Positions 14,399-38,708 of a stretch of DNA of 50,245 nt are shown piece after piece. The notes below the pieces were generated by a model. It made no database searches. It was not told the DNA's origin and saw only the letters and a list, made by a program, of their open reading frames with translations. The DNA comes from an uncultured Micrococcales bacterium (GTDB lineage Bacteria > Actinomycetota > Actinomycetes > S36-B12 > UBA10799): assembly GCA_937952095.1 (NCBI GenBank), contig CALFYG010000327.1, forward strand, positions 1 to 50,245, in the 5' to 3' direction. The position numbers were made by a program, and so were the translations under genes. The stretch's first letter is position 1; each line of letters starts with the position of its first letter.

Positions 14399-17300
14399 TG
14401 GCGAAGCTGCCCCGAGACGGCGATAGTGACGGCCGCATCTTCGACGGCACGAAACGGGAGATGCCCGCCCCGACGAAACTGGTCGAGGTGGCCGAGAAGG
14501 CCGCCCGGGTCGTGGACGATGTGGACGATGTGGACGATGTGGACGTTCCGTCGCGGGTCAACTCCGGTGACGCCGACCGGCCGCTGGTCGACCCCGATGT
14601 TGTGGCACCGGGCGGATCGATCGGTCCGACAATCCTGTCCGAGCCGTGGCCGACCGGTCCGCCCAGTCCGAACACGGGGTGGAGGCTGCCGTTGGACGAC
14701 GTGACCCTCCCGGGCGGTCGCCGCGTGAAGATCGTGTCCCACGGGGGCGACTCCCGGGACGGCTACTACTCGTCGTCCTATGTGGCGTTCGACGCTGACA
14801 GCGGGGGCAAGCTCGGCTACCTCGACTATCAGCTCGGCCACGGCGAACTGCACATCGGCATGGTGTCCACCAACGACGACGTTCGGGGCGAAGGCGTCGC
14901 CGACGCCCTTCTCGGCCGCACGCTCGCCGACGCCGACCCCGGTTCGACCGTGTTCAGCGGGTACAAGACGGACGAGGGTGCAGGTTGGTGGGACCACGTC
15001 GCCCCGATCCTCGCCGATCGTGGGTTCGAAGTTGGCGACCCCGGATTCGCCCTGGACGCCCCGGACGCCCCGGACGCCCCGGACGCCGGTGGTGAGCGGC
15101 TCGATCCCTTGTCGATCACCCGTTCAGGCAGCCCGGTCCGTTGGAAAGAGGGTGGATGGCAACCCGGCACCCCGACGCGTTGGGTGAAGGGCGACGCCTC
15201 CCAACGGACGATCGACGCCCGGATGCGGGCCGTGCGGGCGCTCATGGAGGACGAACTGCCCCAACTCAAGGGCAAGAAGTTCACGGTCGACACTTGGCTC
15301 AACTACGACGAGTTCCATGCTGACCACCCGTACGGCGGTGACGCTGCCGGGGTGGCCGGGTGGCGGCCCGAGCTGGGCGAGCACGGGTCGGTGTACGTCT
15401 CCCCGGAAGTGACCCGGGGCCTGGCTCGCAACGACCGGGAGGCCGTGCGGGACTGGCGGATCGTCATGCACGAACTGGTGCATGCGGCATCCCCGCAGAC
15501 CGTGTCGAACAGCGGGCCGGAACCGGTCATGGAAGAAGGGATGGCGGAGATCCTCTCGGCCGACATCGCTGCCCGCCGCTTGGACCTGGCTGGGTTCGCG
15601 AGCGACGGCCGCCACGGCGCCCCGAAGTGGACCGAGATGGAAGGGCTCGCTGTTGGCGCCAACTACAAGGACCGGGTGGCGGCGCTCATCATGAACGCCG
15701 GGCAACGCACCGGCTGGGACCGTGACGCCACCCGGGCCATGCTGCGCGACTGGTGGGACGGCGGCAGCTACAGCCCTTATTTCCGGCGGATCGAACGTCG
15801 CGACGACGGACTCGACCCGGACGCCTACACGGCGAAGCAACGCGACGAGATCAACGCCCGGTACGACGACCTGATCGCCCGGCTCCCCGAACACGCCGAC
15901 GAGTACGAGGCCGACCGGGCACGCGAACTGGCTGACGCGACGACCCCCGACGGCGACTGGCGCTGGCAGGCCAACCAGGAATGGGAGAAGGGTGTCGAGT
16001 CGGCCCGCTCCCACGGCGTGGACGTCGACCGGATCCCGTTCGACTACACCAACGAGCCGTACTGGGACCTCGCCGACTCCAGGGAAGTGGTCGCTGAACG
16101 CGACACGGTCGGAGCGTCCCTGCTCTACTGGCTGCTCGACGGGTCCGACGGGCGCACCGCCGAAACCGCCACCACGGTGGAGGCCCCGACGACCGAACAC
16201 CCGACCGGGGACCGTTTCGGGTCGCTCGCCGATGCCACAGGTGCGGGGAAGGTCACGGTCACTGACGCCGACGTGAAGCCCGGCATGGTGACCGTCGACA
16301 ACGGGGGCGACCCGTTGCTGCACATCCAGGCTCCGGGTGACAAGCCGGACACTTGGGTAGCGGTCGACGGTGCGGGCGGTGGCCGCACATACCGCCTGCC
16401 CGGATCGGTGGACGTGGCCGCCATGGCCCGGTCCGATGACCCGGGGGCAGCGTTGGCGGCCGATGCGGCGCTGCGGGGACCGTGGCGCAACCGTCGCCCC
16501 GTGTCGGCCCGGCGACGGTCACAAGCGTTCAACCTGCTGAACGAGGTGCAGGCTGCACCGATGGCCGACGAGCCACTGGTGGCGGCACCCGACCCGGACG
16601 TGTTCGACGGCTCCGACCTGAAGCCCGGCGACCGGTTCGACGTGCCGGTCATGTCGGCGGTCCCGGCCGATGGGGCGTGGCCGACCCGCACCGGGGGCGA
16701 CCACACGGCGGGACTCGCCGAAGGGTGGGCGAGGCTCGACCCGGAGACGCGTGGTCTGCTCGACTCCGGTGACGTCGAACAGATGGGCGCCCGCATGGCC
16801 CCGGAACCCCGGACGGTGCTCCGGTTCGACACGTCGCGGGCTCTGCCTGGCGAGGGTGGCAGTCACACCGTCACCGGCCGGTTCGTCGTGGACGGGGTCG
16901 AGGACGTCGAGGATCCCGACGGGCTCCCCTACTGGGACGGTGCCGGATTCCGGCAGTCCCCGGCCCGGGTGGTGCGGGCGCACTGGGTCGAGGACGTGGA
17001 CGCTCCTGACGGCCGCGGGCCGGTGGCGACCCCGCCGGGGTGGACACGGCAAGGTCCACCAGTGTTGGACGATTGGACGACGCGCGAACCGGTCGGCGGG
17101 TGGGCGAGCGAGGCGGACCGGATCCGGGCGGCGCAGACGTGGCCGACCGGGTCACAGGCGGTGACCTTCACTTTCGGGGACGGCGACGGGCGCGTCGACA
17201 TGGCGGTCCATGAGCCGTGGCAGATCGACCAGCAGAAGCTCGCACAGTTGGGTTCGACGGTGGCGACTCTCCAGCGGTCGTTCCAGCCGCCGGTGCCGTC

Positions 17301-20154
17301 GAGGATGAAGGCCCCGGTGCGGCCGGTGACGGTGGATGTGACGCCGTTCCCGGGTGGCGAACAGGCGGCGGCTGTCACTTGGCCGGACGACCGGCGCATG
17401 GTCTACGACTGGTCGGCGCTCAAGCCGGGTAGTCGTGCCGACGTGATGGAGCCACCGTGGACGGTGCGGAACGCGACCCGGGTGGACGACGTCGACTACA
17501 TCGCGACCCATGAGTGGGGGCACCTGGTCGACCCGGAGGGCAAGTGGTCGACGAAGGCGTCGCTCCGTAAGCCCGTGTCGGGTTATGCCCGGTCGGCGAT
17601 GGATTCGTACCGTGCCCGGGGCGTGAAGCGTCGCCGGATCCTCGGGGCGGAGAACTGGGCGGAGATGTTCGCCGATTGGGCGATCAACCCGGACACGGCG
17701 GATCCCGAATCACAGGAGGTGGTGGGCCTGGCCGGGTTCCCGGTGCCGGTGCCGCCGATCGCCGACCTGCCGCCGGGTGGGGGTCTGCCCGGTGGGGCCG
17801 GGGCGGTGGTGGCTGCTGTGGCGGCCGGTCCGTCGTGGCCGGGTGACATCGTGGTGGACCGGTTTGACGGCCGCCCGGTGGATGAGCGTCTGGTGCGGGA
17901 CGCTTACCTGATCCTGGGTTTGACTCCACCCTCTGCTAACATGCCAGCGTCAACCGACGACGAAGGAGCCGACAGTGGCCGACGAACCGACCGACCCGCA
18001 GGGCCGGACCCCGCTCGGCGTGGTCAAGACGACCAAGCCGTGGAAGGACATGACCGACGAAGAGATCGACGCCCTGTCGAAGAAGCTGTTCGAACAGATG
18101 AAGTCGAAGCTCCCGCCCGCCGGGCAGGAGTGACGATCGCCGGGGAAGAACCGACCGGGGCCATGGTGGCCCTGGTCCCGGCGCGCCCCCAGGCCCTCAC
18201 CGTGGACGGCGGCGAGGAACTGGGGGCGCTGCACCTCACCCTCAAGTTCCTGGGCGATGCGGCCGACTGGCCTGCCGACCAGCGGGCGGTCGTGGAACGC
18301 ACCGTTGCCGACTGGGCGGCGCAGACACCCCGGTTCACCGGCACGGTCGGCGGCGCCGGACGTCTCGGCACCGACGGGGCGATGGTCTGGCATCTCGACG
18401 TACCGGGACTCGCCCGCTCCCGTGAGGCCCTGTCGGCGTGGATAGATGACCGCACCGATGCCGACACGTCGGACCGGTGGGACGGGTTCACCCCGCACGT
18501 CACGTTCGCCTACGACGACGTCGACCTGCCCGACTTGCCGGACGGTGACGTGCCGTTCTTCGACGCCGTCGTGTGTTGGGGACCGGACCGGACTGTCGTC
18601 CCCCTGTCCGGCACGCTGGGACGCTCTGCGGCCGTTCTGGCCCGCGACGGCGACGGCGACGGGTTCATCTATGACGGCACGAAGCGCGAGATGCTGGCAC
18701 CGACCCGGATGCTCGACATCGACATCGACATGGAACTGGAAGCCGACGCCATCGGCGAACGGCGCAACGCTCCGATCGGACGTGTGCAGCCGGTGACCAG
18801 GGGATCTGACGTCGCACCGAAACCGGCGGTCGACGCCGACTTCGGGGCCATGCGCGACGACGCCCCGGCGACCAAGAGCGGCAAGAAGGCCGCCAGGCCG
18901 GGCGGCAAGGCTCTGATCGCTGCGACGCTCGGTGACAGGATCGGGGCGAAGAACGGGACGGTGGCAGGCGTCCGCCACATTGAAACGGCCGAAGAAGCTG
19001 TCCGTCAGTTCGTCGGCAATCTGGAGGTCGTCTATCAGGCTGCGAAGAAACGCAAGGGGTTCATCGCCGGGGCCAGACAGTGGTACGACCGGGCGCACGA
19101 CCGGGCCGTCGCCCTGGCCGACAAGCTGGACATGCACCCCGACGGCGGGGCCGCTGTGCTTGCCGCCCTGTCACCAAACATGGACTGGAACTACAACCTC
19201 GCTCAAGCCGACGCCCTCGCCGAGTTCTGGTCGACGGACCCGGTCGTGGACGACGAAGTGCGAAAGCTGGCAAAGCGGCTCGTCAGTGACCTGCGGTTCA
19301 AGGACTACAAGCACCGCCTACCGGGCGACCCGATGAAGCCCGAGTCGAAGTGGATCACGCTGGTCGACGTTCCCGAGGGGACGCGCCTGCGGTCGGGGAT
19401 CACCGACCCACAAACCAGGGCCATCTACGCCCGGGTGTGGGCCACATTGCACACCGAGGGTGGAGCATTCTCACCGGAGCTGCGGGTCGACAGTAACGGC
19501 CAGATGGTGCCCACCGGCGCCGTCCCGCGGACCCGGTGGCAGTCGGCGGACAACATCGCCAAGGCGCTCGCCATCATGGACGACCCGTCCCGGGCCAACG
19601 TCGACCGTCAGCTCGGCGACGGACTCAAGGTCCGATCCTTCTACAACAACATCGCTTACCCCGACAACAACATGTGGCCGGGCGGGGACGTCACCGTTGA
19701 CACTCACGCCGCATCGACATTGTTCGGGGCGCCGTATGGCAACCAGGCGGAGCCGTTCCACACGATCGTTGGTAAGTCAACAGTCGAGGACGGCGAATAC
19801 ATCAAGGTGGCGATGGTCGAAGCGTTCCGCCGGTTTACTGCCAAGCACGCCGACGACTTCGACACGCCCCGGGAAGCGCAGTCGGCCCTGTGGGAGATTT
19901 GGCGGAGTGCCGCCTACTCCAACGCCGGGAACAACGAGGCGCTCAAGCAGGGCTTGCGTGACGCCTGGGCGGCCGTGGACGAACCAGGGATCTCCGACGC
20001 TGTCCGGCGACGTCGGCGTCGCAAGGCGCGCCAGCTCATGGGCGAGTGGTTGTCTCAACCGTTGCCGTGGATCGACTACGACCCCACCAAGGTCGACGCC
20101 GACGGCAATCCTGTACCGCCGGTCGAGGAGGTGGCCGATGTCCCCGCAGTCTGA
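14398..20154 (+). CDS. Giant polyvalent-type protein as the ORF stands (1918 aa): GNAT-like, two HExxH zincin domains, 2H phosphoesterase and a C-terminal alpha-helical domain. Probably two or three genes (see findings)
   Basis: ATG 14398 overlaps the portal-MuF stop. GNAT motif A-like MVSTNDDVRGEGVADALLG (~14680-15040). HELVH at 15469-15483. HEWGH at 17509-17523 followed by ENWAEMFADW. 2H motifs HLTL 18232-18243 and HVTF 18495-18506. No in-frame stop until 20152, but the frame loses GC3 bias between ~17930 and 18130. Confidence 0.5.
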   Translation: MAKLPRDGDSDGRIFDGTKREMPAPTKLVEVAEKAARVVDDVDDVDDVDVPSRVNSGDADRPLVDPDVVAPGGSIGPTILSEPWPTGPPSPNTGWRLPLDDVTLPGGRRVKIVSHGGDSRDGYYSSSYVAFDADSGGKLGYLDYQLGHGELHIGMVSTNDDVRGEGVADALLGRTLADADPGSTVFSGYKTDEGAGWWDHVAPILADRGFEVGDPGFALDAPDAPDAPDAGGERLDPLSITRSGSPVRWKEGGWQPGTPTRWVKGDASQRTIDARMRAVRALMEDELPQLKGKKFTVDTWLNYDEFHADHPYGGDAAGVAGWRPELGEHGSVYVSPEVTRGLARNDREAVRDWRIVMHELVHAASPQTVSNSGPEPVMEEGMAEILSADIAARRLDLAGFASDGRHGAPKWTEMEGLAVGANYKDRVAALIMNAGQRTGWDRDATRAMLRDWWDGGSYSPYFRRIERRDDGLDPDAYTAKQRDEINARYDDLIARLPEHADEYEADRARELADATTPDGDWRWQANQEWEKGVESARSHGVDVDRIPFDYTNEPYWDLADSREVVAERDTVGASLLYWLLDGSDGRTAETATTVEAPTTEHPTGDRFGSLADATGAGKVTVTDADVKPGMVTVDNGGDPLLHIQAPGDKPDTWVAVDGAGGGRTYRLPGSVDVAAMARSDDPGAALAADAALRGPWRNRRPVSARRRSQAFNLLNEVQAAPMADEPLVAAPDPDVFDGSDLKPGDRFDVPVMSAVPADGAWPTRTGGDHTAGLAEGWARLDPETRGLLDSGDVEQMGARMAPEPRTVLRFDTSRALPGEGGSHTVTGRFVVDGVEDVEDPDGLPYWDGAGFRQSPARVVRAHWVEDVDAPDGRGPVATPPGWTRQGPPVLDDWTTREPVGGWASEADRIRAAQTWPTGSQAVTFTFGDGDGRVDMAVHEPWQIDQQKLAQLGSTVATLQRSFQPPVPSRMKAPVRPVTVDVTPFPGGEQAAAVTWPDDRRMVYDWSALKPGSRADVMEPPWTVRNATRVDDVDYIATHEWGHLVDPEGKWSTKASLRKPVSGYARSAMDSYRARGVKRRRILGAENWAEMFADWAINPDTADPESQEVVGLAGFPVPVPPIADLPPGGGLPGGAGAVVAAVAAGPSWPGDIVVDRFDGRPVDERLVRDAYLILGLTPPSANMPASTDDEGADSGRRTDRPAGPDPARRGQDDQAVEGHDRRRDRRPVEEAVRTDEVEAPARRAGVTIAGEEPTGAMVALVPARPQALTVDGGEELGALHLTLKFLGDAADWPADQRAVVERTVADWAAQTPRFTGTVGGAGRLGTDGAMVWHLDVPGLARSREALSAWIDDRTDADTSDRWDGFTPHVTFAYDDVDLPDLPDGDVPFFDAVVCWGPDRTVVPLSGTLGRSAAVLARDGDGDGFIYDGTKREMLAPTRMLDIDIDMELEADAIGERRNAPIGRVQPVTRGSDVAPKPAVDADFGAMRDDAPATKSGKKAARPGGKALIAATLGDRIGAKNGTVAGVRHIETAEEAVRQFVGNLEVVYQAAKKRKGFIAGARQWYDRAHDRAVALADKLDMHPDGGAAVLAALSPNMDWNYNLAQADALAEFWSTDPVVDDEVRKLAKRLVSDLRFKDYKHRLPGDPMKPESKWITLVDVPEGTRLRSGITDPQTRAIYARVWATLHTEGGAFSPELRVDSNGQMVPTGAVPRTRWQSADNIAKALAIMDDPSRANVDRQLGDGLKVRSFYNNIAYPDNNMWPGGDVTVDTHAASTLFGAPYGNQAEPFHTIVGKSTVEDGEYIKVAMVEAFRRFTAKHADDFDTPREAQSALWEIWRSAAYSNAGNNEALKQGLRDAWAAVDEPGISDAVRRRRRRKARQLMGEWLSQPLPWIDYDPTKVDADGNPVPPVEEVADVPAV
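14512..14547 (+). repeat. In-frame 9-bp tandem repeat (GTGGACGAT x3 plus a variant) encoding VDDVDDVDDVDV
   Basis: Direct reading of the sequence. A shorter copy (GTGGACGATGTGGACGATGAA) occurs near 38566 in the 36183 gene. Confidence 0.9.
15055..15087 (+). repeat. In-frame 9-bp tandem repeat (GACGCCCCG x3) encoding DAPDAPDAPDA
   Basis: Direct reading of the sequence. It acts as a linker after the GNAT-like segment. Confidence 0.9.
17975..18133 (+). CDS. Embedded 52-aa ORF in a different frame from the giant ORF
   Basis: AAGGAG (17963-17968), 6 nt, then GTG 17975. Translation VADEPTDPQGRTPLGVVKTTKPWKDMTDEEIDALSKKLFEQMKSKLPPAGQE. By my count about 49 of its 52 third positions are G/C, against 22 of 53 for the giant-ORF frame over the same nucleotides. 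Stop TGA overlaps GTG 18130 (GTGA). Confidence 0.5.
   Translation: MADEPTDPQGRTPLGVVKTTKPWKDMTDEEIDALSKKLFEQMKSKLPPAGQE
18130..20154 (+). CDS. 2H phosphoesterase (LigT/CPDase-like) plus C-terminal large alpha-helical domain protein, if independently initiated
   Basis: GTG 18130 is coupled to the stop of the embedded ORF. The product starts VTIAGEEPTGAMVALVP, like stand-alone 2H proteins. HxTx motifs HLTLKFLG and HVTFAY. A DGDGDGFIYDGTKRE motif follows, then a ~450-aa domain (..WYDRAHDRA..LSPNMDWNYN..KVRSFYNNI..DTHA..). Confidence 0.5.
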   Translation: MTIAGEEPTGAMVALVPARPQALTVDGGEELGALHLTLKFLGDAADWPADQRAVVERTVADWAAQTPRFTGTVGGAGRLGTDGAMVWHLDVPGLARSREALSAWIDDRTDADTSDRWDGFTPHVTFAYDDVDLPDLPDGDVPFFDAVVCWGPDRTVVPLSGTLGRSAAVLARDGDGDGFIYDGTKREMLAPTRMLDIDIDMELEADAIGERRNAPIGRVQPVTRGSDVAPKPAVDADFGAMRDDAPATKSGKKAARPGGKALIAATLGDRIGAKNGTVAGVRHIETAEEAVRQFVGNLEVVYQAAKKRKGFIAGARQWYDRAHDRAVALADKLDMHPDGGAAVLAALSPNMDWNYNLAQADALAEFWSTDPVVDDEVRKLAKRLVSDLRFKDYKHRLPGDPMKPESKWITLVDVPEGTRLRSGITDPQTRAIYARVWATLHTEGGAFSPELRVDSNGQMVPTGAVPRTRWQSADNIAKALAIMDDPSRANVDRQLGDGLKVRSFYNNIAYPDNNMWPGGDVTVDTHAASTLFGAPYGNQAEPFHTIVGKSTVEDGEYIKVAMVEAFRRFTAKHADDFDTPREAQSALWEIWRSAAYSNAGNNEALKQGLRDAWAAVDEPGISDAVRRRRRRKARQLMGEWLSQPLPWIDYDPTKVDADGNPVPPVEEVADVPAV

Positions 20155-20344
20155 CCGTCACGACCCGATTGGCCGACTTCCGGTCGTCGTCGGCCACGAC
20201 GACACGAACGACGCCGACGAGGCCCGTGAGATCGAGGAGCAGAACGCGTTCAACGATGAGCTGGAGGCGTTCGCTCGGACCCTGTATCCCGACGGCATCC
20301 TCCCGCGGGAACGGAAGCGGATGGAGGCCGAACAGGCCGAGTAG
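20138..20344 (+). CDS. Hypothetical acidic small protein, 68 aa
   Basis: ATG 20138 after GAGGAGGTGG. It is the internal start of the alternative-frame ORF 19460..20344. Overlaps the end of the giant ORF by 17 nt. Confidence 0.45.
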   Translation: MSPQSDRHDPIGRLPVVVGHDDTNDADEAREIEEQNAFNDELEAFARTLYPDGILPRERKRMEAEQAE

Positions 20345-20378
20345 GACCACCGTCGGGACGGCACGCCCGGCGTCCAGA

Positions 20379-21602
20379 ATGGGGCGCATGGCCGCCCCTG
20401 ATCCTGCCGCCCCGTTCCCGGCCCCGTGGAACCCGCCCCGGTCGTGGTTCTCGGAGATCCCCGACTGGTTCGACCCGGACGGCGGGCTCATCCAGTTCGA
20501 CTGGGAGACGGGCCGGGTGGCTGCGATGGTCGCCCCGTACGGCGACTGCATCCTTGACGGGTCGAAGCAGTGCTGGAGTCCGCCCGTCTCGCAGACAGGC
20601 TACGAGTACGCCCACGTCGGGACGTGTGTTCTGGAGGACGGCGAGACGATCCGGGTGGCGACGATCGGCGGAGGCGTCCCGCATGCCAGCCTGCGGGCGG
20701 CCATGTCGGTCGCCCAGGACCACTACGCCAACACGGCGACCCGCAAGCTGGTCGGGCGGTACGTCGACTCGCCCGAAGCGGGCGGGATCGTGTTCCTCGG
20801 TTCGGCGCAACCCGGACTCACCTACGCCGACGTGTACGACACCCTGTCGTCGGCCGTGTCCGGCGACTGGCGGTGGATCCCGGCGCTCGGCGGCTACGAG
20901 ATGGTCGGCGCCCAGTTGGTCAACAGCCCCGGGTTTCGTCCCGTGCCCGGCGGCAAGCGTGTGCGGGCGGCTGCGATCAACTTTCTGTCGGGCGGTCCGA
21001 AAGTGGCTGCTGCCAAGTGTGGCGGCGGCGAGCAGGTGTACGGGGAGTGGGTGCCGATCGAACTGGAGTCGACTCCGGGGCTCGGTGACCGGGTCGCCCG
21101 TCTGGCGGCGGCTACTGCCGCCCTGGAGTTGGCGGCGGTGGTGGACGAGGAGATGCCACCGGCTCGCACGGCGGGTCTGTTCCGCCGCAAGCATCCCCTG
21201 TCGCCCGCTGAACTGGCGCAGCGGAAGAAGGCGGCGCTGATCTCGGCGATGAAGCGGCGAGGCAACCGGCGTCTCGGCCGGTACGCCCCGGACGGTACCG
21301 GCCCTAAGCGGCGAACAGCCTTGGATGATTCGCCGGTGTTGGACGCCGCCAAGCGGTCGCGGTCCAGCAACCTGAGGGGGCTGTCCAAGGATCAGGCTCG
21401 TCGGATCCGCGAGGTGAACCGGCGCAACCTGGCTCGCGAGCGGGCCGAGCGGACCGACATGGAGGTTGGGCTGTTCGAAGCGCGGGGCGACGTGGATGCG
21501 GAGATCAACGAGCGGCGCATCGCCAAGTACCGGCGCACTCATCCCCGCAAGGAATACCCTCGCCGTGTCGCATCGGCCGCAACGATCACCAAGAGGTTCT
21601 GA
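20379..21602 (+). CDS. Putative capsid maturation (prohead) protease with a long basic C-terminal extension
   Basis: Internal ATG (20379 or 20388) of ORF 20046..21602. WFSEIPDWFDP..GRVAAMVAPYGDCILDGSKQCWSPP..YEYAHVG..SGDWRWIP..AQLVNSPGFRP resembles actinophage capsid maturation proteases as I recall them. Placement between portal and capsid genes fits. Confidence 0.5.
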   Translation: MGRMAAPDPAAPFPAPWNPPRSWFSEIPDWFDPDGGLIQFDWETGRVAAMVAPYGDCILDGSKQCWSPPVSQTGYEYAHVGTCVLEDGETIRVATIGGGVPHASLRAAMSVAQDHYANTATRKLVGRYVDSPEAGGIVFLGSAQPGLTYADVYDTLSSAVSGDWRWIPALGGYEMVGAQLVNSPGFRPVPGGKRVRAAAINFLSGGPKVAAAKCGGGEQVYGEWVPIELESTPGLGDRVARLAAATAALELAAVVDEEMPPARTAGLFRRKHPLSPAELAQRKKAALISAMKRRGNRRLGRYAPDGTGPKRRTALDDSPVLDAAKRSRSSNLRGLSKDQARRIREVNRRNLARERAERTDMEVGLFEARGDVDAEINERRIAKYRRTHPRKEYPRRVASAATITKRF

Positions 21603-21609: not shown

Positions 21610-24600
21610 ATGCCTGCTGAACGACAGGACCACCCCGCCCGCACCGCCGCCGGGCGGTCCTTCCGTGCCTTGCCGAAGATGGTCGGGGGCAAGGTGATCG
21701 ACGGTGACGGCGACATGCGGGTACTCGACGGCACCAAGATGGAACGGGCAGCGACCCCCGCCGAACTGAAGCTGTCCCGCAAGCTCCGGGCGCTCGCCAA
21801 GGGTGGAGGCGGCAAGCGCCGCACCCGGGGACCGGTCACTCGCCGGACCCGTGATCGGGACGCCCTCAAGGCCCAGGCGCTCACCAACGCCCGCAAGAAG
21901 GTTCGGCGGCGCCCGACGACCGAAGCGCCGTCGAAGGCCCACATGCAGAAGAAGGGCCGGGCCGCATGGGGCAAGGTCGACCGGGTCGACATGATCGACG
22001 TGCCCGAGGGCGACGACGAGACGGTCGGCGCCGAGGTCGACGGACTCAAGATCCGCCTGCCCCGCAACGGCGGCCGCCCCTACATCGACACCGAGAACGG
22101 CCCGGTGCCGCTCGACGGGGTGTTCGTGTCCCGCCCCGAGGTCGACGCTCTCCTCAAGGGCTCCAAGGACACGTTCGACGCCGACAAGTTGACCCCCGAA
22201 CAGCACGACGCTGTCCAGTCCGCATGGGGCAAGGTCGACCGGCTGCACGGCGGGCAGACCGTGTCCGGCGAGGACCGGTCCGTGTCCGTCGCCGACATCA
22301 CCGACTCCCACGGCGAGAAGATCGTGTTCAGCGTGCCGGACCGGGGCGGCGAGGTCACCGTCGACTACCGCCGGGACCGGTCCGAGATGACCGACGAGGA
22401 GATCGCCCGGGGTGACGACCCGTGGCTGACCGACCAACCGACTGGCATCTTCCTCGACGAAGCCGAGGTCGACGCCAAGCGCCAAGGCAAGGCTGCACCC
22501 GAGTTGGACGCCAAGCGTCGCCGCCAGGTCCGTCAGCGGACCGAAGCACCGGTCAAGCCCGAGGGTGACGACTTCGACCGTGCCAACCCGAACAGCGACC
22601 TGTCGGAGAAGCTGATCGAGGACGGCGGGTTCACGATCGACCCGGCCGACGGGTCCGGGCCGACCGTCGGCTATGTGGTCGCCCGCCCCGGCCACTCCAA
22701 GATCATGACCCGCGAAGAGTTCGAAGCGGGCGGCGAACACGACATCAACGAGTACCTCCGCAAGCTGCGGGACGAGGAAGCGAACCCGGACGTGATGCTG
22801 GGCGGGTGGTACGACGCCCGGCACGACGAGATCGTGCTGGACCGGGTCGAAGTGGTCGACTCCGAGGACGAGGCGGTGCGGCTCGGCCAGGAACGCAACG
22901 AACAGGCCATCTGGGACCTGAAGGGGCAGCGGGAGATCCCGACCGGTGGCACCGGGACAGGTGCGGACCGCAAGCCGGTGACGCCCGTGTCGGCCGATTC
23001 GACCGACGCCGACGTCGATCGGTCGTTCGCCGAAGCGGTCGACGCTGCTGTGCCCGAGGCGCGCCGCAAGCGTGTCGCCGAGGGTGGCGGACCCCGGGGC
23101 GACACCGTGAAGGACGCCGTGGCCGAGGACGTGGTCGACATGGCCCGCGAGTCCGGCATGACCGACGACCAGATTCGTGGTGCCCTGGACCGTAACGGTG
23201 GCCCCGACGGGGTGGACCGGGCGTCGTTCGACAAGGCGCTGGACCGTCCCCGTCCCGACGACATGAGCGGAACCTCACCTTCCGAGGGTGACGTGACCGC
23301 CGGTCGCGCCCTCGCTTTGCAGCGGGTGAAGGATGCGGCGTCGACCACACCGGCAACGTCACAGCCGAAGCCGGGATCGCCTGACATCCCCGCCGACGTG
23401 GCCGGTCTGCCCGGCGTCGACTCAGGGTCCGGCACGAAAGAGGATCCGCTGCGGGTGTCGGACATGTCGACGGCCGTGAAGCTCCTCGGTGACGGCAAGT
23501 ACCACATCCAGTTGAACCGCCCGGATGAGGTCGCCACGCTGCTCGACAAGGTCCGCGAAGAGACGGCGAAGTTCAAGGAGCGGGGCGAGAAGGAACCGGT
23601 GTTCAACCTGTGCCTCGTCTCGGTGCCGGGTTCCAACCTCTTCTGTGTTGACGACCAGACGGAGATGATGACGAGTCGGGGATGGCGTCGGTACGACGAA
23701 CTGTCCGTCGGTGACACGGTCCTTACCTTGAACCACGACACCGGCCTGGCCGAGTGGCAGCCACTGGAGGCCGTGAACGTCTTTCCCTCCGAGGACAGGC
23801 TGGTTCTCTCGATGGAGGGTCAGTTCCATTCGTCTCTTACGTCCAGCGAGCACCGGTGGCCTGTTGTCCAAACAAAGACGGGGGCCAGACTCTGGAAGGT
23901 GAGCGAAACGCTCCTGACAACGGACCGCATCCAGACCGTGGCGCCGGTGGCGAATCTCCCGACGGAGCCAAAGTATGAGGACGCCTTCGTTGAGCTGGTC
24001 GCGTGGGTCTGGACGGAGGGCACCTTCGACGGAGCCATGACACGGATCTACCAATCTCACCGCTACAACCCTGGGTACGTCGCCGACATCGCTCGAACCC
24101 TGACGTCCCTGTTCGGCGATGAGCGCGCCGAACTGCAGTCCATTCGCACGGCGCTCAAGGGCGGTAGGACCGGGGCGGTGCGCGCTCCCACCCCGGGGTG
24201 GCGTCGATCCGAGAACGACTCAACGGGCATGACTTCGTTCTTCTTGAACGGGGCGGCCAGCACGGCGCTACGCACCGTGATGGATGGTGACAAGGTTGTG
24301 GACCCATCCTTCATTGCCAGTCTCACCCTGTCGCAGTTGCACCTGTTCATAGATCGCTCGGTCGACGCTGACGGTCATCGTGGCCGAGTGGAAGGCTTCT
24401 CCCAGCGCAGTGTCGAGAGGGTGCGGATCTTTGAGATGGCCTGCGCCCTCGCCGGGGTGAGGACCAACACGACTGAACGGCCAGAGACGCGCCCCGGCAG
24501 GAAGAGTGGCCTCGTCCAGTACCAGGTCGGGGTACTGCGACGGTCATCGCCGTACACGTCGCCCATGTCGACCAAGAACCGACCAGAGTGCCGGACGAGA

Positions 24601-25473
24601 GTGGAGTGGGTCCACCACAAGGGGATCCTGTGGTGCCCCACCACGCCGAACGGAACCTGGCTGGCGCGACGTAGGGGCACAGTGTGGTACACGGGCAACT
24701 GTGCCGATAGCGTGGGTTACGACCGTATTCGCATGCCGCAGTTGTCGACGGCCAACCCGGTCCCCGGGTCCTATGCCGACTCCCTGCCCCGCAACGGCAA
24801 GGGCGAAGTGGACTTGACCGAGGACTTCCTCAAGTGGCTGGAAGAGGTCAAGGGCATCAAGGTGAAGCGGGGCACCAAGGTGTACGCCTCGCATCTGCGG
24901 GCATCGCAGGCCGAGCTGCGGGGCGGCAAGGTGACCGGCATGATGGAAGGCATGAAGGCGGGCAAGGTTCCGCCCGGTGTCATCTCGCAGACCAGCGACG
25001 GTTACATCATCGACGGACACCATCGTTGGGCGGCCAACACGGGCCTGTCCATGGGCGGATCGAACCCGGTGATGGAGACGAACACGATCGACGCCGACAT
25101 CGTCACCATCCTCGCTCTCGCCAACCAGTTCGCATCCGACATGGGGTCCCCGCCGATGGCTGCCAGCGTCTCAGGTCGCACCACGAAGCCCGTCCTGTTC
25201 TTTGCCGGGGTCGACCGGCCAGAACAGTCCAAGGCGTTCACCGAGGTCGGGTGGCTCACCCCCGACGGGTTCGCTCCCACCCCCGTGTGGGGTGACCTGC
25301 CGGGCACGGATCCGGCCACCGTGTACGTCGGTGACGCCCCGTGGGCCGGGATGGACCCGGACGGCCTGTACGACTCGGCGGTCGTGATGGCGTCGCCGGT
25401 GTTCACGACGGACGCCCCGGACGTGGCCGACCCGCCGGAACTGGTCGACCCGCCCGACTCGGCGTTCGGCTGA
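21610..25473 (+). CDS. Polyvalent-type protein (1287 aa precursor) with an N-terminal DxDxDG motif, an internal WGKVDR duplication, and a ParB/Srx-like DGHHR domain interrupted by an intein
   Basis: ATG 21610 lies 8 nt after the protease stop (the ORF-track start 21466 overlaps the protease gene). ..SQAELRGGKVTGMMEGMKAGKVPPGVISQTSDGYIIDGHHRWAAN is ParB/sulfiredoxin-like. The intein is at 23644-24699. Confidence 0.7.
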   Translation: MPAERQDHPARTAAGRSFRALPKMVGGKVIDGDGDMRVLDGTKMERAATPAELKLSRKLRALAKGGGGKRRTRGPVTRRTRDRDALKAQALTNARKKVRRRPTTEAPSKAHMQKKGRAAWGKVDRVDMIDVPEGDDETVGAEVDGLKIRLPRNGGRPYIDTENGPVPLDGVFVSRPEVDALLKGSKDTFDADKLTPEQHDAVQSAWGKVDRLHGGQTVSGEDRSVSVADITDSHGEKIVFSVPDRGGEVTVDYRRDRSEMTDEEIARGDDPWLTDQPTGIFLDEAEVDAKRQGKAAPELDAKRRRQVRQRTEAPVKPEGDDFDRANPNSDLSEKLIEDGGFTIDPADGSGPTVGYVVARPGHSKIMTREEFEAGGEHDINEYLRKLRDEEANPDVMLGGWYDARHDEIVLDRVEVVDSEDEAVRLGQERNEQAIWDLKGQREIPTGGTGTGADRKPVTPVSADSTDADVDRSFAEAVDAAVPEARRKRVAEGGGPRGDTVKDAVAEDVVDMARESGMTDDQIRGALDRNGGPDGVDRASFDKALDRPRPDDMSGTSPSEGDVTAGRALALQRVKDAASTTPATSQPKPGSPDIPADVAGLPGVDSGSGTKEDPLRVSDMSTAVKLLGDGKYHIQLNRPDEVATLLDKVREETAKFKERGEKEPVFNLCLVSVPGSNLFCVDDQTEMMTSRGWRRYDELSVGDTVLTLNHDTGLAEWQPLEAVNVFPSEDRLVLSMEGQFHSSLTSSEHRWPVVQTKTGARLWKVSETLLTTDRIQTVAPVANLPTEPKYEDAFVELVAWVWTEGTFDGAMTRIYQSHRYNPGYVADIARTLTSLFGDERAELQSIRTALKGGRTGAVRAPTPGWRRSENDSTGMTSFFLNGAASTALRTVMDGDKVVDPSFIASLTLSQLHLFIDRSVDADGHRGRVEGFSQRSVERVRIFEMACALAGVRTNTTERPETRPGRKSGLVQYQVGVLRRSSPYTSPMSTKNRPECRTRVEWVHHKGILWCPTTPNGTWLARRRGTVWYTGNCADSVGYDRIRMPQLSTANPVPGSYADSLPRNGKGEVDLTEDFLKWLEEVKGIKVKRGTKVYASHLRASQAELRGGKVTGMMEGMKAGKVPPGVISQTSDGYIIDGHHRWAANTGLSMGGSNPVMETNTIDADIVTILALANQFASDMGSPPMAASVSGRTTKPVLFFAGVDRPEQSKAFTEVGWLTPDGFAPTPVWGDLPGTDPATVYVGDAPWAGMDPDGLYDSAVVMASPVFTTDAPDVADPPELVDPPDSAFG
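23644..24699 (+). mobile_element. Intein (352 aa) with a LAGLIDADG-type homing endonuclease insert
   Basis: Starts with Cys (..GSNLF/CVDDQTEMMTSRGWRRYDELSVGDTVLTL, block A). Block B-like SSLTSSEHRWPV. Endonuclease-like VELVAWVWTEGTFDG and LHLFIDRSVDADGH. Ends ..ILWCPTTPNGTWLARRRGTVWYTGN/C with the terminal Asn followed by a +1 Cys. Confidence 0.75.
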
Positions 25474-35500: not shown

Positions 35501-35881
35501 CGCCGGTCCTTGACGCCGACCGAAGCGTCGATATGGACCCCCGACGACTGGTGGGGGGGCTACGTCCTGGCCCGCAAGTACAACAAGTACCGGGGGACGT
35601 TCCGCGGCTACGTGGACGAGGTGATGTCGAGGCCCGACACCCCCGCACCCGGCCACGCTTCGGTGGGGATAGCGAAGGCGGCCGAGGAGAAAGCGGCCGA
35701 GGACTCCCTCCCCTGGAGCGTCGGCGACGTCGTGACCGACGAGTGGGGGATCACCCCGGACGGCGGACCGGTGAAGGTGTCCAAGGTCAGCGGGTGGACC
35801 GTGAAGTTTGAGGATCCGACCACCGGGGCGTACCTTGGCACCAAGGTGATCACCCCACCGGCCATTGCACTGGCCGAGTGA
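29534..35881 (+). CDS. Polyvalent-type protein with an R-S-ExE ADP-ribosyltransferase-like domain and a C-terminal array of SH3-like repeats (paralog 2, 2115 aa)
   Basis: ATG 29534 lies 1 nt after the upstream stop. N-terminus VWHDPGNGQFA. ART-like region ~31855-32375: DGLLDTQNGSWADSSQS, ITYRG (Arg 32144-32146), YSEHEVVTMG (E-x-E 32348-32356). About a dozen short beta-rich repeats at 33140-35350. Confidence 0.65.
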   Translation: MAYDKLGVWHDPGNGQFAKPGFSSAKALALKTMREVIGAMTRDRVKDRHRDWVILRTDLLADYDLHAGDVVDARFVDDDWAQVTVSDPDTGFDRVVKVPWSSFDDGWESEWGPSPVRPDRDLTWKPSALADGKMSKATSSELVDGTTVRVHTAAGGVVDIVTRDEHQAEAVKGLLDNEMAGDDGLPVWEFNGIPQRSFRWTDNIASNLAILDHRGRVRVLDDNNGGRRVEIGSPPGQPPTVVTITPTSVTSSYGTGDGFSWLAPERNPAASVDDLADAAVAVAPIAPSLMSQGIPVAPTVTPDGMRFGDWLFSFKEVQDAAIGARNHLNPSSGVISVLFPKADFDVGMGVRYEGLNPDNPVGYVGTFDVDRVEDVDGVWAVALKGGTSLAFTGMDAAEVPEADALAAVERVTDGLPTFDRLDVAIGSLPFDKLTDPDPDPDTVAWMRGALVSASTATLGTPPMAYDAGDGQVLSLGGKPWGGTTLWRDKATGDVFYRYAKHPDGTPGPVNGTVLATGTTEEQARSILYGWSNGLDPSIGAAIVEQGGSISRTGRIRTGDGRTLTPDSFLAELSAWAMAGEGREGVAKLAPTVADFSSPTAFAAFGERALRVGADTPDSKLGDIVINAPSGATWASDDVDLARQKAWLSHFPVLDTFKAAIRADLDTPDGLTEEERTQVVRDRVSRTLGMFNRQRNIQLDSALARWNMDMFTVVDNANQQAGAASDKGRAALESEVVADIGLPEGLTVDEKVDRLLDRLDTLTLNDGRPAVAGIIDGLLDTQNGSWADSSQSNQATALQFAALDLQGPDVTGGFNSWKKWSDKRAEDNDYNRGFTAGQMMMARLMVASTYTLTQSDLDKRGFGPDDVVITYRGSDEPQFQMASTAGSFGDRMWVQTNPLAATASTYASSFKNGGKVVVAQRVPRSKIFATAATGTGTYSEHEVVTMGAPDGYLSALADAYPTRPDIEDVLRHTDDLSDVVNVDAIHDLPSGEQTATLGAIQLVNGAMTGPELPDGLVDSLRAGDLSALNHNPAESGSFFQTGAPFSDAQAGGDMAAAVRRVAMAMGPGPDRVNFMADAFDAIDTYDFGGEWDGISVWDPTSEAYTKRPFTDNEKAVVRAAFKVGLARDMGIVGTTPAMESVPFQGHKLVYEGPSDIKVDLSNFGAEQRIPGRFRMVDADTPAADVFPDRTPRVAERDDVVDTGRVMKDVTEGDILVHDGRMVIVTSYDWPDGVGDDVTVWANDALTGDPLEWESTGGEVMPVVPGSPGLVDTTDVQPGMMIAHPETGERVLVSRLLPQSDWDENEIEVVTAPGQPPTTVRTTMDQLVVFGDDDAGWASVSASSVAPGDRVQTFYSGTTVVGTVTAATKNDDGGVDLDITFDTPVYGDTEASLWFDDGDEIDKLTFAASGSAVYREVSTGDLRPGMTMFDWAKFGSDDDRFTITDAKQKSDGSWAVSGTWQDGDPDTVVLQDGATVKVLPTPPTPTAAKPTIKAVGSPSGSGWSTPKAIKAGTAFWSGGQWYGATRDAEIRDDDWYEVEATPLFGGGATTTLKGAPSDSPSFLVDGKVRAMQADQLYPGMQVDLAGDGQMRTIGLVAHDGDTVKIKLGPSTSKDKIRDVTLDGSSVVATVLPTPITKAEVKVGDVIVSPKGPVVAITPGSESALAFGPDSEPFQLTRPDAGWTMLGNATARGDSLRRADELIPGDPVRIPSSGIGVVESVAPGAGTNVDITFTNGQTISMFSARGVSLAGTPVLWPDVVPGTEVGGRDVANVEHLGGGVVRVDWADGDPQVFGPHDVARVTRSPNPATVAVPTAPIPVLDNEKVALGKFMYLGSSFGLVTKVAATEGNGLTVTLQTDEGLLDVPGIGPGGSTLALLGIGENDDMIPVGSVRAGDVIVDTDGLPHYVEVVAPSGSTTVKLTLADSAVPVFVDSGEQVIRVDSGPDGDDIPNPQDIAVTPEKVGTGHYRKLADDVTRDMLDNGDIRVWTPSVARRSLTPTEASIWTPDDWWGGYVLARKYNKYRGTFRGYVDEVMSRPDTPAPGHASVGIAKAAEEKAAEDSLPWSVGDVVTDEWGITPDGGPVKVSKVSGWTVKFEDPTTGAYLGTKVITPPAIALAE

Positions 35882-35896
35882 CCGAGGAGGGATCTC

Positions 35897-36154: not shown

Positions 36155-36182
36155 TACGTCCGACTGACATGATGGGGCCACC

Positions 36183-38708
36183 ATGGCCGACCAGACCGAT
36201 CTCATGGACGTGGCCGTCGACTCGGCCGTCGCCGCTTTCGACGTGTTCGTCGCCGGGGAAACCGAGGACGGGTCGCGCCTACTGACGTTCGACCCGCGGA
36301 CCCCCGTGTCGGCGACGGTCGTGTGGCGCGAGGGTGCCCCGGACGCCCTGTTGACGGTCGCCCAGGTGGAGCAGGAGACGCCGGGGATCGTCTGGTACGC
36401 CCTCCCTCCGCCAGCGGTTGCTCCCCGCACCGCAGCCGCCGATGCGCCGCCCGAGGATGCGGCACCGGTCGAAGCCCCCAAGGTGGACGAGGCGCTCGTT
36501 GCCCGCCAGCAGGCCACGCTGGACGAGGTCGAGGAACGCATCGGTGAGATCGAGGGCCGGGTCGCTGCCGTCATGTTGCGGTCCATGACCGACGAACTGT
36601 TCGACGGCGACGAACCCGAGGCGGACGATGACGGCGAGGCCAAGACGGCGTCGGCCGGGTTCGTCGAACCGCTCGGCCTTGTCCTGGCCCGCTTGGCCGC
36701 TCTCGGCGAACCGGGCAATGAGGCGGTCGAGGTTCGTATCGAGGAACTGTCGGGACGGCTCGACGCCTTGGAAGCGGCGGTCGCCGACCTGCTCGCCGAC
36801 AGTGGCCCGGACGAGGATCTCGACCTGCCTGATCCGACGGCGACGACCGTGGACGAGACGCTACCCCGCGACGAACAGGGCGGTGGCCATATTGCTGCGG
36901 CGGGGAGGCCGAAGCCCCGCCCTTTTGACCCGTCGAAGTTCCGCCCGGGGCGTCCGGTCGACGCCGACGGTGACGGGTTCGTCTATGACGGCACGATCCG
37001 TCAGCGGCCTGCCCTGCCGCCGCTGCCCAGGGGGAAGGGTGACCGTCTGGACATCCGCGCCCCGGGTGAGTGGGATGACAGGGTGAGGACCCCGGTGCGG
37101 GAGAAGGCCGGTCGCTCTCGCGGCCAGTGGGTCGAGGTCCAAGAGTCGGACCACACGCTGGCCTTGCCGGACGGCCGCCGGGTGAGCGTCAACGTGTCCG
37201 GCGAGTCCGCCCGACGCCACGTGCTGTCAACCCCGACGGTGTCGACCGGCCGCAAGGGTGAGGGCATCGAGGTGAGGGGCCGACTCCGCACCGGCGAAGC
37301 GACGTGGATGGTGGTCGACGGCGACCAGACCTTCCACGGCAAGGTGCTGACATCCAGCTTCCACTTGGTGGCCGACGAGCTGGAGATGCAGCCGGACGAG
37401 TCGCTGGAGCATTTCCGCGAGCGGGCCAAGAAGTGGGCCGTGGACCGGGCGACGAAGCGGTACCCGTTCTCGGTGGGCGACACGGTCGACGGCGGCGGTA
37501 AGCGGTGGACGGTCACCGGGTACACCGAGTCCGGCAACCCACTGGTGCGACCGATCGACTCGACCAGTGGCAAGTCTCGGGCGATGTTGGCCGACAAGCT
37601 CATCAAGGTGGTCGACCCCGACGACGTGGTGGAACCAGGCAAGCCGGACGGTCTGGCCTTGCGGCCACCACCAGCGTTCGACGTGGACGCCTTCGTCGCC
37701 GACCATCCCCGCCAGCCGGGCGAGAACTTCTTCGACTGGCAGGGCCGCATCGTCGCCGACCTGCCGCCGCAGTTGCAGTCCGACGTGCTGTTCAAGACCC
37801 GCGAGGTCTACCCGCCGTCCAGGTTCATCGCCGACGGGATCGCCCGCTGGCAGACCGAACACGGGCTGCCGCCGCTGCCCGACAACCTGATCGACACGCC
37901 GGTCGACTTGGAAGAGGCCGACGACGTGGCTCGCTTCTTCGAAGGCGCACCGGACATGTCCGACGACCCGGACGTGCGGGCTGCCTACGAGGACTTCAAG
38001 GCACAGTCGGCCGAGCAGTGGGACTTCATGACCCGACCCGAATCGGAGGGCGGGATGGGGATCACCGTCGACTTCACCGACCAGGTGGACCCGTATGCGA
38101 CGGCCGAAGAGCAACGCAACGACCTGGAGCAGAACCACCACTTGACGATCCAGTCGGGGCTCGGTGGCGACCATTCCGGCACGATGACCCAAGAAGAGTA
38201 CGACCGGTTCCGAGCGGTCCACGACGTGTTCGGACACGCCGGGATCGGGTCCGGTTTCGATCGGCACGGCGAGTACGAGGCGTGGCTTGTTCACGCTGCG
38301 ATGTACCGCGGCCAGGGTCGCCGGGCGATGTCGACCGAGTACCACGGCGTCAACTCGGCCATGTGGACGGGGGCTCCGGGTTCGCCGGGGACCGGCAAGT
38401 CTGTGCTGCTGCCCGACGAGTTCGGCGAGCCGCCGTGGTTGCGGGCCGACAAGCTGGGCGGCTATTCGGACTCGTACCTGTTGCAGCTCTGGTACTCGAA
38501 GGATCAGACCCCCCAGTTGCGGGCAGAGCTTGTCCGTCGGGGGATCTTGCCGAAGGCGGCCGCCGTGGACGATGTGGACGATGAATCGCAGCCCGACTCG
38601 TCCGACCCGGTCGACCGGCTGATCGAACTGCTGGGCCTGACAGACAAGTTCGCAGCCCTGTTCGACACCCTGCCGCTGCACGAACTACCGGAGGACGAGG
38701 ACCGATGA
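36183..38708 (+). CDS. Large head-module protein (841 aa): acidic/coiled-coil N-terminus, DxDxDG motif, SH3-like unit, C-terminal HDxFGH domain
   Basis: DADGDGFVYDGT at 36960-36995. C-terminal FRAVHDVFGHAGIGSGFDRHGEYEAWLVHAAMY is not assignable to a named family from memory. Confidence 0.55.
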   Translation: MADQTDLMDVAVDSAVAAFDVFVAGETEDGSRLLTFDPRTPVSATVVWREGAPDALLTVAQVEQETPGIVWYALPPPAVAPRTAAADAPPEDAAPVEAPKVDEALVARQQATLDEVEERIGEIEGRVAAVMLRSMTDELFDGDEPEADDDGEAKTASAGFVEPLGLVLARLAALGEPGNEAVEVRIEELSGRLDALEAAVADLLADSGPDEDLDLPDPTATTVDETLPRDEQGGGHIAAAGRPKPRPFDPSKFRPGRPVDADGDGFVYDGTIRQRPALPPLPRGKGDRLDIRAPGEWDDRVRTPVREKAGRSRGQWVEVQESDHTLALPDGRRVSVNVSGESARRHVLSTPTVSTGRKGEGIEVRGRLRTGEATWMVVDGDQTFHGKVLTSSFHLVADELEMQPDESLEHFRERAKKWAVDRATKRYPFSVGDTVDGGGKRWTVTGYTESGNPLVRPIDSTSGKSRAMLADKLIKVVDPDDVVEPGKPDGLALRPPPAFDVDAFVADHPRQPGENFFDWQGRIVADLPPQLQSDVLFKTREVYPPSRFIADGIARWQTEHGLPPLPDNLIDTPVDLEEADDVARFFEGAPDMSDDPDVRAAYEDFKAQSAEQWDFMTRPESEGGMGITVDFTDQVDPYATAEEQRNDLEQNHHLTIQSGLGGDHSGTMTQEEYDRFRAVHDVFGHAGIGSGFDRHGEYEAWLVHAAMYRGQGRRAMSTEYHGVNSAMWTGAPGSPGTGKSVLLPDEFGEPPWLRADKLGGYSDSYLLQLWYSKDQTPQLRAELVRRGILPKAAAVDDVDDESQPDSSDPVDRLIELLGLTDKFAALFDTLPLHELPEDEDR

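Follow-up and report, generated by a model that had tools for sequence, protein, structure and literature searches.

The 50,245-nucleotide contig CALFYG010000327.1 (assembly GCA_937952095.1, filed under an uncultured Micrococcales bacterium), which was analysed over its whole length and is called the window here, belongs to an uncultured phage that is present on 22 metagenome contigs, and three long open reading frames (ORFs) on its plus strand encode four copies of a short peptide that combines a DxDxDG loop with a DGT..E half. These four peptides are copies of a conserved, autonomous and virus-specific module of about 25 residues that is grafted onto many unrelated phage proteins at their starts, their ends and the junctions between domains. 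It is particularly frequent on giant polyvalent effectors, probably packaged in the virion, whose genes lie between those for portal-MuF and capsid. All four are exact, in-frame translations of the DNA, and the coordinates and protein positions that an initial annotation of the window had given for them hold (Table 1). We are very confident that the module is both real and undescribed.

A conserved module of about 25 residues

The module reads [FLY]xPx[AP]x-DGDGDG-h-[VI]-[QYF]-DGT-x-x-[EQ]-[RK]-P-[AV], a consensus that fits all four window copies. The initial annotation had compared its first half with the calcium-binding DxDxDG loop; Asp at loop positions 1, 3 and 5 and Ile or Val at position 8 are indeed present in every copy, whereas the Gly claimed for position 6 is found in three of the four, copy 3 having Met instead. 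A loose regular expression (D.D.D.{3,4}DGT), applied to all six frames of the window, revealed no fifth copy.

The window has a content of guanine plus cytosine (GC) of 63.7%, GAC and GGC are favoured codons, and DGDGDG is of low complexity, so that chance in a coding sequence rich in Asp and Gly had to be considered as a source of the four peptides. Its probability is negligible. Four copies were seen, compared to 0.0065 expected when the residues of the seven large proteins were shuffled, and none arose in shuffled DNA; together with the conservation of columns outside the search pattern and the database matches described below, this refutes an origin by chance. The similarity between copies at the DNA level, to which the initial annotation had also drawn attention, adds nothing. 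The nucleotide identity between window copies is 33-46 of 60 positions, which matches the expectation because the amino acids are conserved and the codon bias (GAC/GGC/ACS) is strong. A reading of the four copies as a DNA repeat was rejected because the third-position identity at identical residues is only 36-75%, and the feature therefore belongs to the protein level.

Outside the window, a back-translated pattern that fixes only D.D.DG.[IVM].DGT matched at least 120 stretches in IMG/VR, which, among the matches listed, lie on contigs of 27-63% GC. Columns that the pattern leaves free are nevertheless conserved among these listed matches. When columns are counted from zero at the start of the loop, so that the acidic residue at +14 is loop position 15, they carry Glu or Gln at +14 (114/119), Arg or Lys at +15 (104/119), Pro at +16 (97/119) and Ala or Pro at -2 (102/118), and there are further preferences for Ala or Val at +17, for Phe, Leu or Tyr at -6 and for Gln, Tyr or Phe at +8. 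In the same set the three Asp residues at loop positions 1, 3 and 5 are invariant (they are also fixed by the pattern), Gly is present at +3 in 93 of 119 and Val or Ile at +7 in all 119 matches. The extended consensus is kept across genomes of 27-69% GC, and its marine version is FNPDATDGDGDGLVQDGTEWERPV.

A profile search of 5.8 billion proteins gave matches down to E = 3e-13, all of them in proteins of at most 77 residues owing to a bias in candidate selection, which was corrected by an exhaustive HMMER search of 1.84 billion cluster representatives. At E<=1e-3 the latter yielded 1,029 proteins, of which 158 also pass E<=1e-10, and its hidden Markov model (HMM) matches reach E = 5.6e-36.

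The initial annotation knew of no described function for the motif, and the searches bear this out. Motif segments and small carrier proteins matched no family in Pfam, NCBIfam or the PDB sequences, the only matches being non-significant ones to integrin or EF-hand loops, and the carrier clusters are all named 'hypothetical protein' in their source databases. The motif was not found in the literature on DGDGDG or DxDxDG in connection with phages, on capsid targeting or on virion proteomics of polyvalent proteins, and a short junction module is not mentioned in the study that defined the repertoire of polyvalent proteins (Iyer et al. 2017, PMC5512222). The sole PHROG family that contains the motif is PHROG 7924 (function unknown), at positions ~78-112 of its 112-position profile and thus at the C-terminal end. 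The profile describes entire small proteins whose genes precede those for major tail proteins, and it is not a model of the module; small marine carriers match its profile, whereas the window proteins do not.

Virus specificity, carriers and position in the protein

The strict pattern separates viral from cellular sequences. Compared to the at least 120 stretches in IMG/VR, only 12 matches were found across 185,579 bacterial and archaeal species (596 Gb). About eight of these 12 are genuine. All of them lie on contigs of metagenome-assembled genomes (MAGs), in ORFs that are giant and phage-like or that encode small carriers, whereas the remaining four, which include the sole isolate genome, look like chance. 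Thus, the module is almost absent from the sampled cellular genomes, prophages and conjugative elements included. A scatter over random positions in unrelated non-phage proteins, which the initial annotation had named among the observations that would speak against its proposal, was looked for and not seen. One 8-kb MAG contig (L138), which is binned as Beijerinckiaceae and is almost certainly viral, carries at least five motif copies spread over several adjacent giant ORFs.

The proteins that carry the module have little else in common. After masking of the motif, 120 sampled carriers fell into about 32 unrelated clusters, and none of 26 motif copies in seven giant proteins (B, D and G of the window among them) lies inside a Pfam envelope, in agreement with the initial proposal that the motif is not part of any enzyme. 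The carriers include marine polyvalent enzymes that carry the motif at their very C-terminal end, fusions to prohead proteases and to portals, Zeta-toxin/sigma-r4/DUF3721 proteins, DUF6321 proteins with long basic tails, a PG_binding_1 protein with tandem motif copies, and many proteins of 50-170 residues, some of which contain tandem 30-residue repeats. Small carriers run on into tails rich in Lys, Ala and Pro after the motif. Those that are membrane-anchored (P0029, P0047, P0057, P0085, P0180, P0189, P0226 and others; loci L121-L127) often end in a histone-H1-like tail of this composition, which is probably cytoplasmic.

At the other end of the size range, the top proteins of the exhaustive search, whose ranking favours multi-copy proteins, are giants of 900-3,015 residues with two to five copies. 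Pfam domains in 38 giants comprise Phage_portal (in five of them), MuF (in two), ART-PolyVal, Zeta toxin, GNAT, NUDIX, DUF7178, HipA-like, PI3/4-kinase-like, ATLF and InPase domains as well as inteins (for example in P0124, with Hint and LAGLIDADG). These are the domains described for polyvalent proteins (Iyer et al. 2017, PMC5512222). The window carriers conform to this class in two respects that characterize it: disparate domains are joined in one chain (protein B combines GNAT-like, 2H, DUF7178 and HExxH regions), and the genes are associated with head genes, lying between portal-MuF and the major head protein. Proteins D and G share cargo domains with marine carriers, and the C-terminal domain of G is found in marine motif carriers and also in Cluster C mycobacteriophage proteins. 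The layout of the window is a recurring architecture, because a viral contig of 62.7 kb (IMGVR_UViG_3300009408_000004; L165-L167) likewise carries at least seven motif copies, spread over four adjacent giant ORFs.

Among annotated phages, tblastn with short motif peptides and tiny carriers gave no match, probably owing to the low-complexity filter. With larger carriers (L009, L073, window protein G, P0125) as queries against cultured phages, the cargo, protease and portal domains were matched and the motif never was. To our knowledge, there is no cultured phage that carries the motif.

The placement of the module within its carriers is characteristic. The initial annotation had located it at protein starts or between modules, and the 26 copies confirm this and add protein ends. 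The order in P0123, for example, is motif-25, DUF3990, motif-346, ART-PolyVal, motif-625, further sequence, and motif-1348. Of 68 large carriers, 21 have their first copy in the N-terminal 30 residues and 46 have it in the N-terminal 100, and the median spacing between copies is 348 residues. Many copies nearly touch a natural terminus, being separated from the N-terminus by 2-7 residues or from the C-terminus by no more than about 10. Copy 2 of the window begins 40 residues past a Pfam match to the 2H/2'-5' RNA ligase domain (ORF residues 1290-1389).

In four lineages, the window included, a motif copy directly follows the end of MuF and precedes a GNAT domain, the adjacency being taken from Pfam coordinates, as the 'H..CRC' end of MuF is too variable for a regular expression. 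Three of these are single-chain portal-MuF-motif-GNAT fusions that are homologous to the window portal: P0121 (MuF 726-794, motif 824, GNAT 998), P0160 (MuF 172-276, motif 299, GNAT 408) and P0125 (portal-MuF to ~825, motif 859, GNAT present). In the window, the stop codon of the portal-MuF gene intervenes, and the motif starts at residue 7 of the next protein, ahead of a GNAT-like region. As the motif follows the end of MuF in both arrangements, the boundary between the portal-MuF gene and gene B is the genetic equivalent of the intra-protein junction found elsewhere. When MuF and cargo are divided between two genes, as in the window, it is the downstream cargo that keeps the motif. A close relative of B, the 1733-residue database protein P0196, lacks 185 residues (~14524-15078, residues ~43-227 of B), including the GNAT-like module, and has kept the motif. 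The two proteins differ by a module-level indel within one phage population, located right after the N-terminal motif; at 97% identity P0196 is too near to B for a test of islands of conservation.

The two flanks of the module differ from one another. The upstream flank has a composition like ordinary folded protein, and the downstream flank is enriched in Arg (1.6x), Pro (1.5x) and Lys (1.35x), with a hydrophobic fraction of 0.223 at +19..+48 compared to 0.275 (p = 2e-11).

With respect to genomic context, many carriers are encoded one to three genes away from genes for portal, portal-MuF, MuF, maturation protease, major head protein or terminase, and recognised virion genes are present in at least 73 of 120 loci. 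The association with head modules that the initial annotation had anticipated is therefore borne out by the frequent portal, MuF, protease and capsid neighbours, but it does not extend to some small carriers, which are located in early or replication regions or in tail modules.

Predicted fold, putative metal loop and proposed function

The reading that we tentatively prefer, and to which we give somewhat less than an even chance, is that the module would be a metal-binding tag, for docking or at junctions, on cargo that is packaged in the virion. The initial annotation had suggested a capsid-targeting signal, a docking element or a protease landmark, and its interpretation is supported in part. 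The DxDxDG half would bind a divalent cation, and the DGT..E[RK]P half would fold back on it to form a mini-hairpin. The result would be a rigid, compact knob with a flexible, basic and Pro-rich linker after it. The knob would act as a docking handle by which cargo is tethered, without a covalent bond, to a component of head assembly while the procapsid forms, which would lead to packaging and later to ejection; candidates for this component are portal-MuF, the scaffold or core, and the capsid interior. In giant proteins, the module would also mark the edges of separately deliverable parts, and its cation dependence could hold the tether in the virion, where Ca2+/Mg2+ is high, and release it in the cytoplasm. 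The wider version of this proposal is that the module would be a general cation-switchable cargo-loading tag of tailed phages, comparable to the T4 capsid targeting sequence or to the loading peptide of encapsulins, that docks unrelated effectors onto portal-MuF or the scaffold core for packaging and for release into the host, and this we regard as rather doubtful.

Structure prediction, at moderate confidence for the core, is consistent with a compact element made of a loop and a mini-hairpin. An ion-free AlphaFold model of copy 2 (44 residues, alignment of 62 sequences) has pLDDT (predicted local distance difference test) values of 77-83 over the 20 core residues and below 50 in the flanks, and it contains a short beta-bridge from F-I (loop positions 7-8) to M-L just past the conserved Glu and no helices. 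Foldseek found nothing in the PDB with this 44-residue model. A profile search of the PDB aligned only the first 9-11 residues, with EF-hand loops (calmodulin DKDGDGTI; DRDGDGFI) and at non-significant E values of 0.2-3, and the rest of the module has no PDB counterpart. The N-terminal half thus resembles the loops of calmodulin and polcalcin, with which it shares Asp at positions 1, 3 and 5, Gly at position 6 and Ile or Val at position 8; the DxDxDG class of calcium-binding loops is reportedly due to Rigden and Galperin in 2004. A canonical EF-hand is a helix-loop-helix, usually paired, whose 12-residue loop ends in a bidentate Glu or Asp. Compared to it, the module has no predicted flanking helices, carries an invariant Thr at position 12 and possesses an extra, invariant DGT..E[RK]P half, so that it is DxDxDG-like without being a canonical EF-hand. 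The Pfam models for EF-hand, dockerin, TSP3 (thrombospondin type-3) and Excalibur did not match the four window segments at E<=10, and the small carriers matched no family at E<=0.01.

The loop pattern and the compact predicted mini-fold would also suit a passive, partner-free element, a Ca2+-stabilised knot or spacer that stiffens and insulates linkers in the cation-rich virion or the extracellular milieu. Dockerins and TSP3 repeats are short Asp-rich Ca2+-binding repeats, sometimes in tandem, with docking or structural roles in extracellular proteins, and the tandem 30-residue repeats of some small carriers recall them; moreover, flexible linkers always accompany the motif, and its virion-module carriers are varied and include tail-module and PG-binding proteins. 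However, the spacing of acidic ligands in the module differs from that in dockerins and bacterial TSP3 repeats, the module is confined to viruses, and we know of no cohesin-like partner for it. Virus specificity and a strict conservation of 25 residues over 27-69% GC would not be expected of a mere spacer, extreme termini offer nothing to insulate, and the sampled conjugative elements do without the module, although polyvalent proteins delivered by type IV secretion systems (T4SS), which are known from conjugative elements, face the same linker problem (Iyer et al., PMC5512222). A passive role is therefore considered unlikely, and docking is preferred to it because the module is virus-specific and favours termini.

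The position at junctions leads to another explanation, namely that the module is a landmark for proteolytic processing, at which a prohead protease or embedded zincin domains cut giant precursors and free cargo from portal-MuF. Copies are found at domain junctions and directly past MuF in single-chain proteins that would need to be released for ejection, some carriers are themselves prohead-protease fusions, and protein B has two HExxH regions. T4-type and phiKZ-type prohead proteases cleave Glu-specifically, and the conserved Glu at +14 recalls this specificity. Autoproteolytic processing of polyvalent proteins has, in addition, been predicted (Iyer et al., PMC5512222). Nevertheless, we consider processing quite improbable, as 25 conserved residues with a metal-loop pattern far exceed the known site requirements of prohead proteases, cleavage of copies close to a natural terminus would be pointless, the motif is retained after gene fission in protein B, tiny single-motif proteins, membrane-anchored ones included, have nothing to free, and the motif was not seen in the capsid, scaffold and portal substrates expected for the same protease. 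The retention at natural termini and after gene fission, the length and the presence on tiny proteins are the reasons why docking is preferred to cleavage.

Several known systems offer partial parallels to the proposed docking tag. MuF polymorphic toxins were reportedly treated by Jamet et al. in 2017, and polyvalent proteins fused to MuF or portal belong to the same class as the module carriers, which are multi-domain and encoded beside, or fused to, portal, MuF or capsid genes; there, however, delivery is explained by covalent fusion, whereas many of the carriers described here are not fused to MuF. Polyvalent proteins have been argued to be packaged and injected (Iyer et al. 2017, PMC5512222). 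A second parallel is found in phage T4. The internal proteins of T4 bear a capsid targeting sequence (CTS) of about 10 residues with an (L/I)xE site, which is exclusively N-terminal, is cut off by gp21 and is restricted to T4-like phages. Like the CTS (reviewed in PMC3012670 and PMC9958956), the module is a short peptide on unrelated proteins and often N-terminal, so that targeting to the head can be hypothesized; yet its sequence is unrelated, it also occurs internally and C-terminally and in many phage lineages, and it therefore lies outside the definition of a CTS. A looser analogy exists with encapsulins. Encapsulin cargo-loading peptides mark diverse cargo for an HK97-fold shell, and both they and the module are short, conserved, terminal and joined by flexible linkers, but the sequences differ and the module occurs in multiple internal copies.

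It should be noted that a considerable number of observations weigh against a docking tag for virion cargo. The docking partner and the packaging role are hypotheses drawn from sequence and context, and cation binding is predicted from the loop pattern, while the module has an invariant Thr at position 12 in place of the Glu or Asp of a canonical EF-hand. In cis fusions of the order portal-MuF-motif-cargo a docking tag seems redundant unless cleavage follows. A layout of portal-MuF and cargo exists without the module: Streptomyces phage Gilgamesh (gp46-gp53) and Gordonia phage Chidiebere (gp23-gp35), which were inspected directly and are laid out alike, have no copy, and E and F of the window are giant head-module proteins that lack it. 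A basic helix-like PAEL…KRR element in proteins C, D and H of the window could be an equally good candidate for targeting to the capsid or scaffold. The prevalence of multi-copy carriers is inflated in the top 150 proteins of the exhaustive search, as these were ranked by summed score. Among the small carriers, the PHROG 7924 family is encoded immediately ahead of the major tail protein gene, where tail modules begin. P0012 belongs to a replication region in T4-like marine myoviruses, and P0029 and P0057 are found among tiny early-type genes, the latter beside an SNase gene. In 38 of 179 small carriers the motif is preceded by an N-terminal transmembrane helix, which a tag for capsid cargo would not predict, and the small membrane-anchored carriers outside head modules fit none of the explanations offered here.

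Early and replication regions, as well as membrane-anchored carriers whose basic tails are predicted to be cytoplasmic, would rather fit an intracellular interaction peptide whose partner during infection would be a conserved factor of host or phage, for example one that localises injected effectors or small early proteins, and that has no role in virion assembly; the segments rich in Lys, Arg and Pro after the motif would suggest contact with nucleic acids. We assign a low probability to this explanation. A ligand of a host hub would be expected in temperate phages, but the motif is almost absent from the 185,579 cellular genomes, the range of hosts is too wide for most host targets (actinobacterial-type, marine low-GC, and T4-like cyanophage or pelagiphage contexts), and the strongest and most repeated association is that with portal, MuF and head genes. 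Near-absence from the sampled cellular genomes, prophages included, and the very diverse hosts are the grounds on which docking is preferred to a host-hub ligand.

The head module of the window and significance of the module

The genes of the window are arranged in the order replication genes, portal-MuF, B, C, D, E, F, G, H, major head protein and two glycosyltransferases (Table 1), and the portal is ~25% identical to portals of Gordonia, Mycobacterium and Streptomyces phages.

Table 1. Motif copies and head-module genes of the window (positions in the window, 5' to 3').
Feature	Coordinates	Strand	Description
Motif copy 1, DGDSDGRIFDGTKREMPAPT	14416..14475	+	Residues 7-26 of B from ATG 14398; six residues past the portal-MuF end
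Motif copy 2, DGDGDGFIYDGTKREMLAPT	18646..18705	+	Internal junction of B, between 2H phosphoesterase-like domain and DUF7178
Motif copy 3, DGDGDMRVLDGTKMERAATP	21700..21759	+	Residue 31 of D from ATG 21610; basic 'TPAELKLSRKLRALAKGGGGKRR' segment directly after
Motif copy 4, DADGDGFVYDGTIRQRPALP	36960..37019	+	Residue 260 of G, between N-terminal acidic/coiled-coil part and C-terminal PHROG 3170 domain
Portal with MuF-type C-terminus (…HAGCRCGFIPEIKVV)	11867..14398	+	PHROG 776 portal; MuF signature read from sequence; stop codon overlaps start of B
Protein B (about 1918 residues), polyvalent carrier	14398..20154	+	Motif, GNAT-like, two HExxH regions, 2H, motif, DUF7178; from Pfam, PHROG and sequence reading
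Protein C, without motif	20046..21602	+	True start uncertain; PHROG 859, 21470, 29860; C-terminal part with basic 'PAEL…KRR' element
Protein D (about 1287 residues), carrier	21610..25473	+	Motif, basic helix, PHROG 17808/3170-type domain, intein-like insert, ParB-like DGHHR region; from PHROG and sequence reading
Protein E, giant paralogue of F, without motif	25477-29532	+	Own N-terminal signature VWHDPGNGQFA
Protein F, giant paralogue of E, without motif	29534-35881	+	Own N-terminal signature VWHDPGNGQFA
Protein G (841 residues), carrier	36183..38708	+	C-terminal PHROG 3170 domain
Protein H, DUF7218	38705-39454	+	Scaffold position; with 'PAEL…KRR' element
Major head protein	39745-41514	+	Closes the head module after H

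The stop codon of portal-MuF and the start codon of B overlap in the sequence TGATG (14396-14400), which suggests translational coupling of the two genes. The start of B at ATG 14398 is supported by P0196, which begins MAKLPRDGDSDG; the start at 14359 chosen by the ORF finder is probably wrong because P0196 begins MAKLPR. Protein C, for which no PDB homolog was found, probably serves as the maturation protease of the head or is a head protein related to it. In protein D, a putative intein-like insert (~23600-24900; from …FCVDDQTEMMTSRGW… to …VWYTGNC) precedes the ParB-like DGHHR region; neither intein nor ParB had a Pfam match at E<=0.01, and both assignments come from reading of the sequence. 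The coiled-coil matches upstream of copy 4 in protein G are weak. Two galactosyl-/glycosyltransferase genes (42088-44176) follow the major head protein gene. The order capsid then glycosyltransferase is also found in unrelated marine loci (L023, L089), where a small motif protein is encoded just upstream of the capsid gene, and it may be a sign of virion glycosylation.

Other short elements are shared between head-module proteins. The basic helix-like element L(T/S)PAEL.QR(R/K).AAL.SA.KRR occurs at ~21174-21278 in C, at 21736-21912 in D (after motif copy 3) and at 38807-38911 in H, with E = 1.7e-6 for C compared to H and E = 1e-3 for D compared to H. Proteins E (25477-25800) and F (29534-29860) are 48% identical over their first 109 residues, starting from VWHDPGNGQFA. 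A signature KHG[DE]HDQ..HG.WA is present at N-termini and between domains in 21 of 129 large carriers (L008, L009 and ~19 other marine loci), and the same marine proteins have the DxDxDG module at the C-terminus. This signature looks like a second type of junction peptide, which E and F resemble loosely. In phage Gilgamesh, the 4,624-residue 'hypothetical protein' gp48 (L168, NC_073461.1 31978-45852) is encoded after the portal-MuF fusion and before the capsid gene. This protein is presumably polyvalent but free of the module, and it would make a good negative comparator.

Packaged and injected phage proteins include anti-defence enzymes, toxins and polymerases, and, as far as we know, it is largely unknown how tailed phages other than T4 select them. 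What would be new here is a DxDxDG-type loop in the putative role of a phage-specific tag of junctions and termini. More than 1,000 carrier clusters, many of them giant polyvalent effectors encoded next to portal-MuF, provide a concrete handle on cargo selection, and the module can help annotators to flag proteins of metagenomic phages as candidate virion cargo. Should it indeed be a loading tag, the injected proteome of uncultured phages would become readable from sequence, and the addition of about 25 residues could bring a foreign protein into capsids. Even if it were a Ca2+-stabilised junction or a processing site, the module would be an undescribed and widespread building block of phage proteins that merits a family model of its own.

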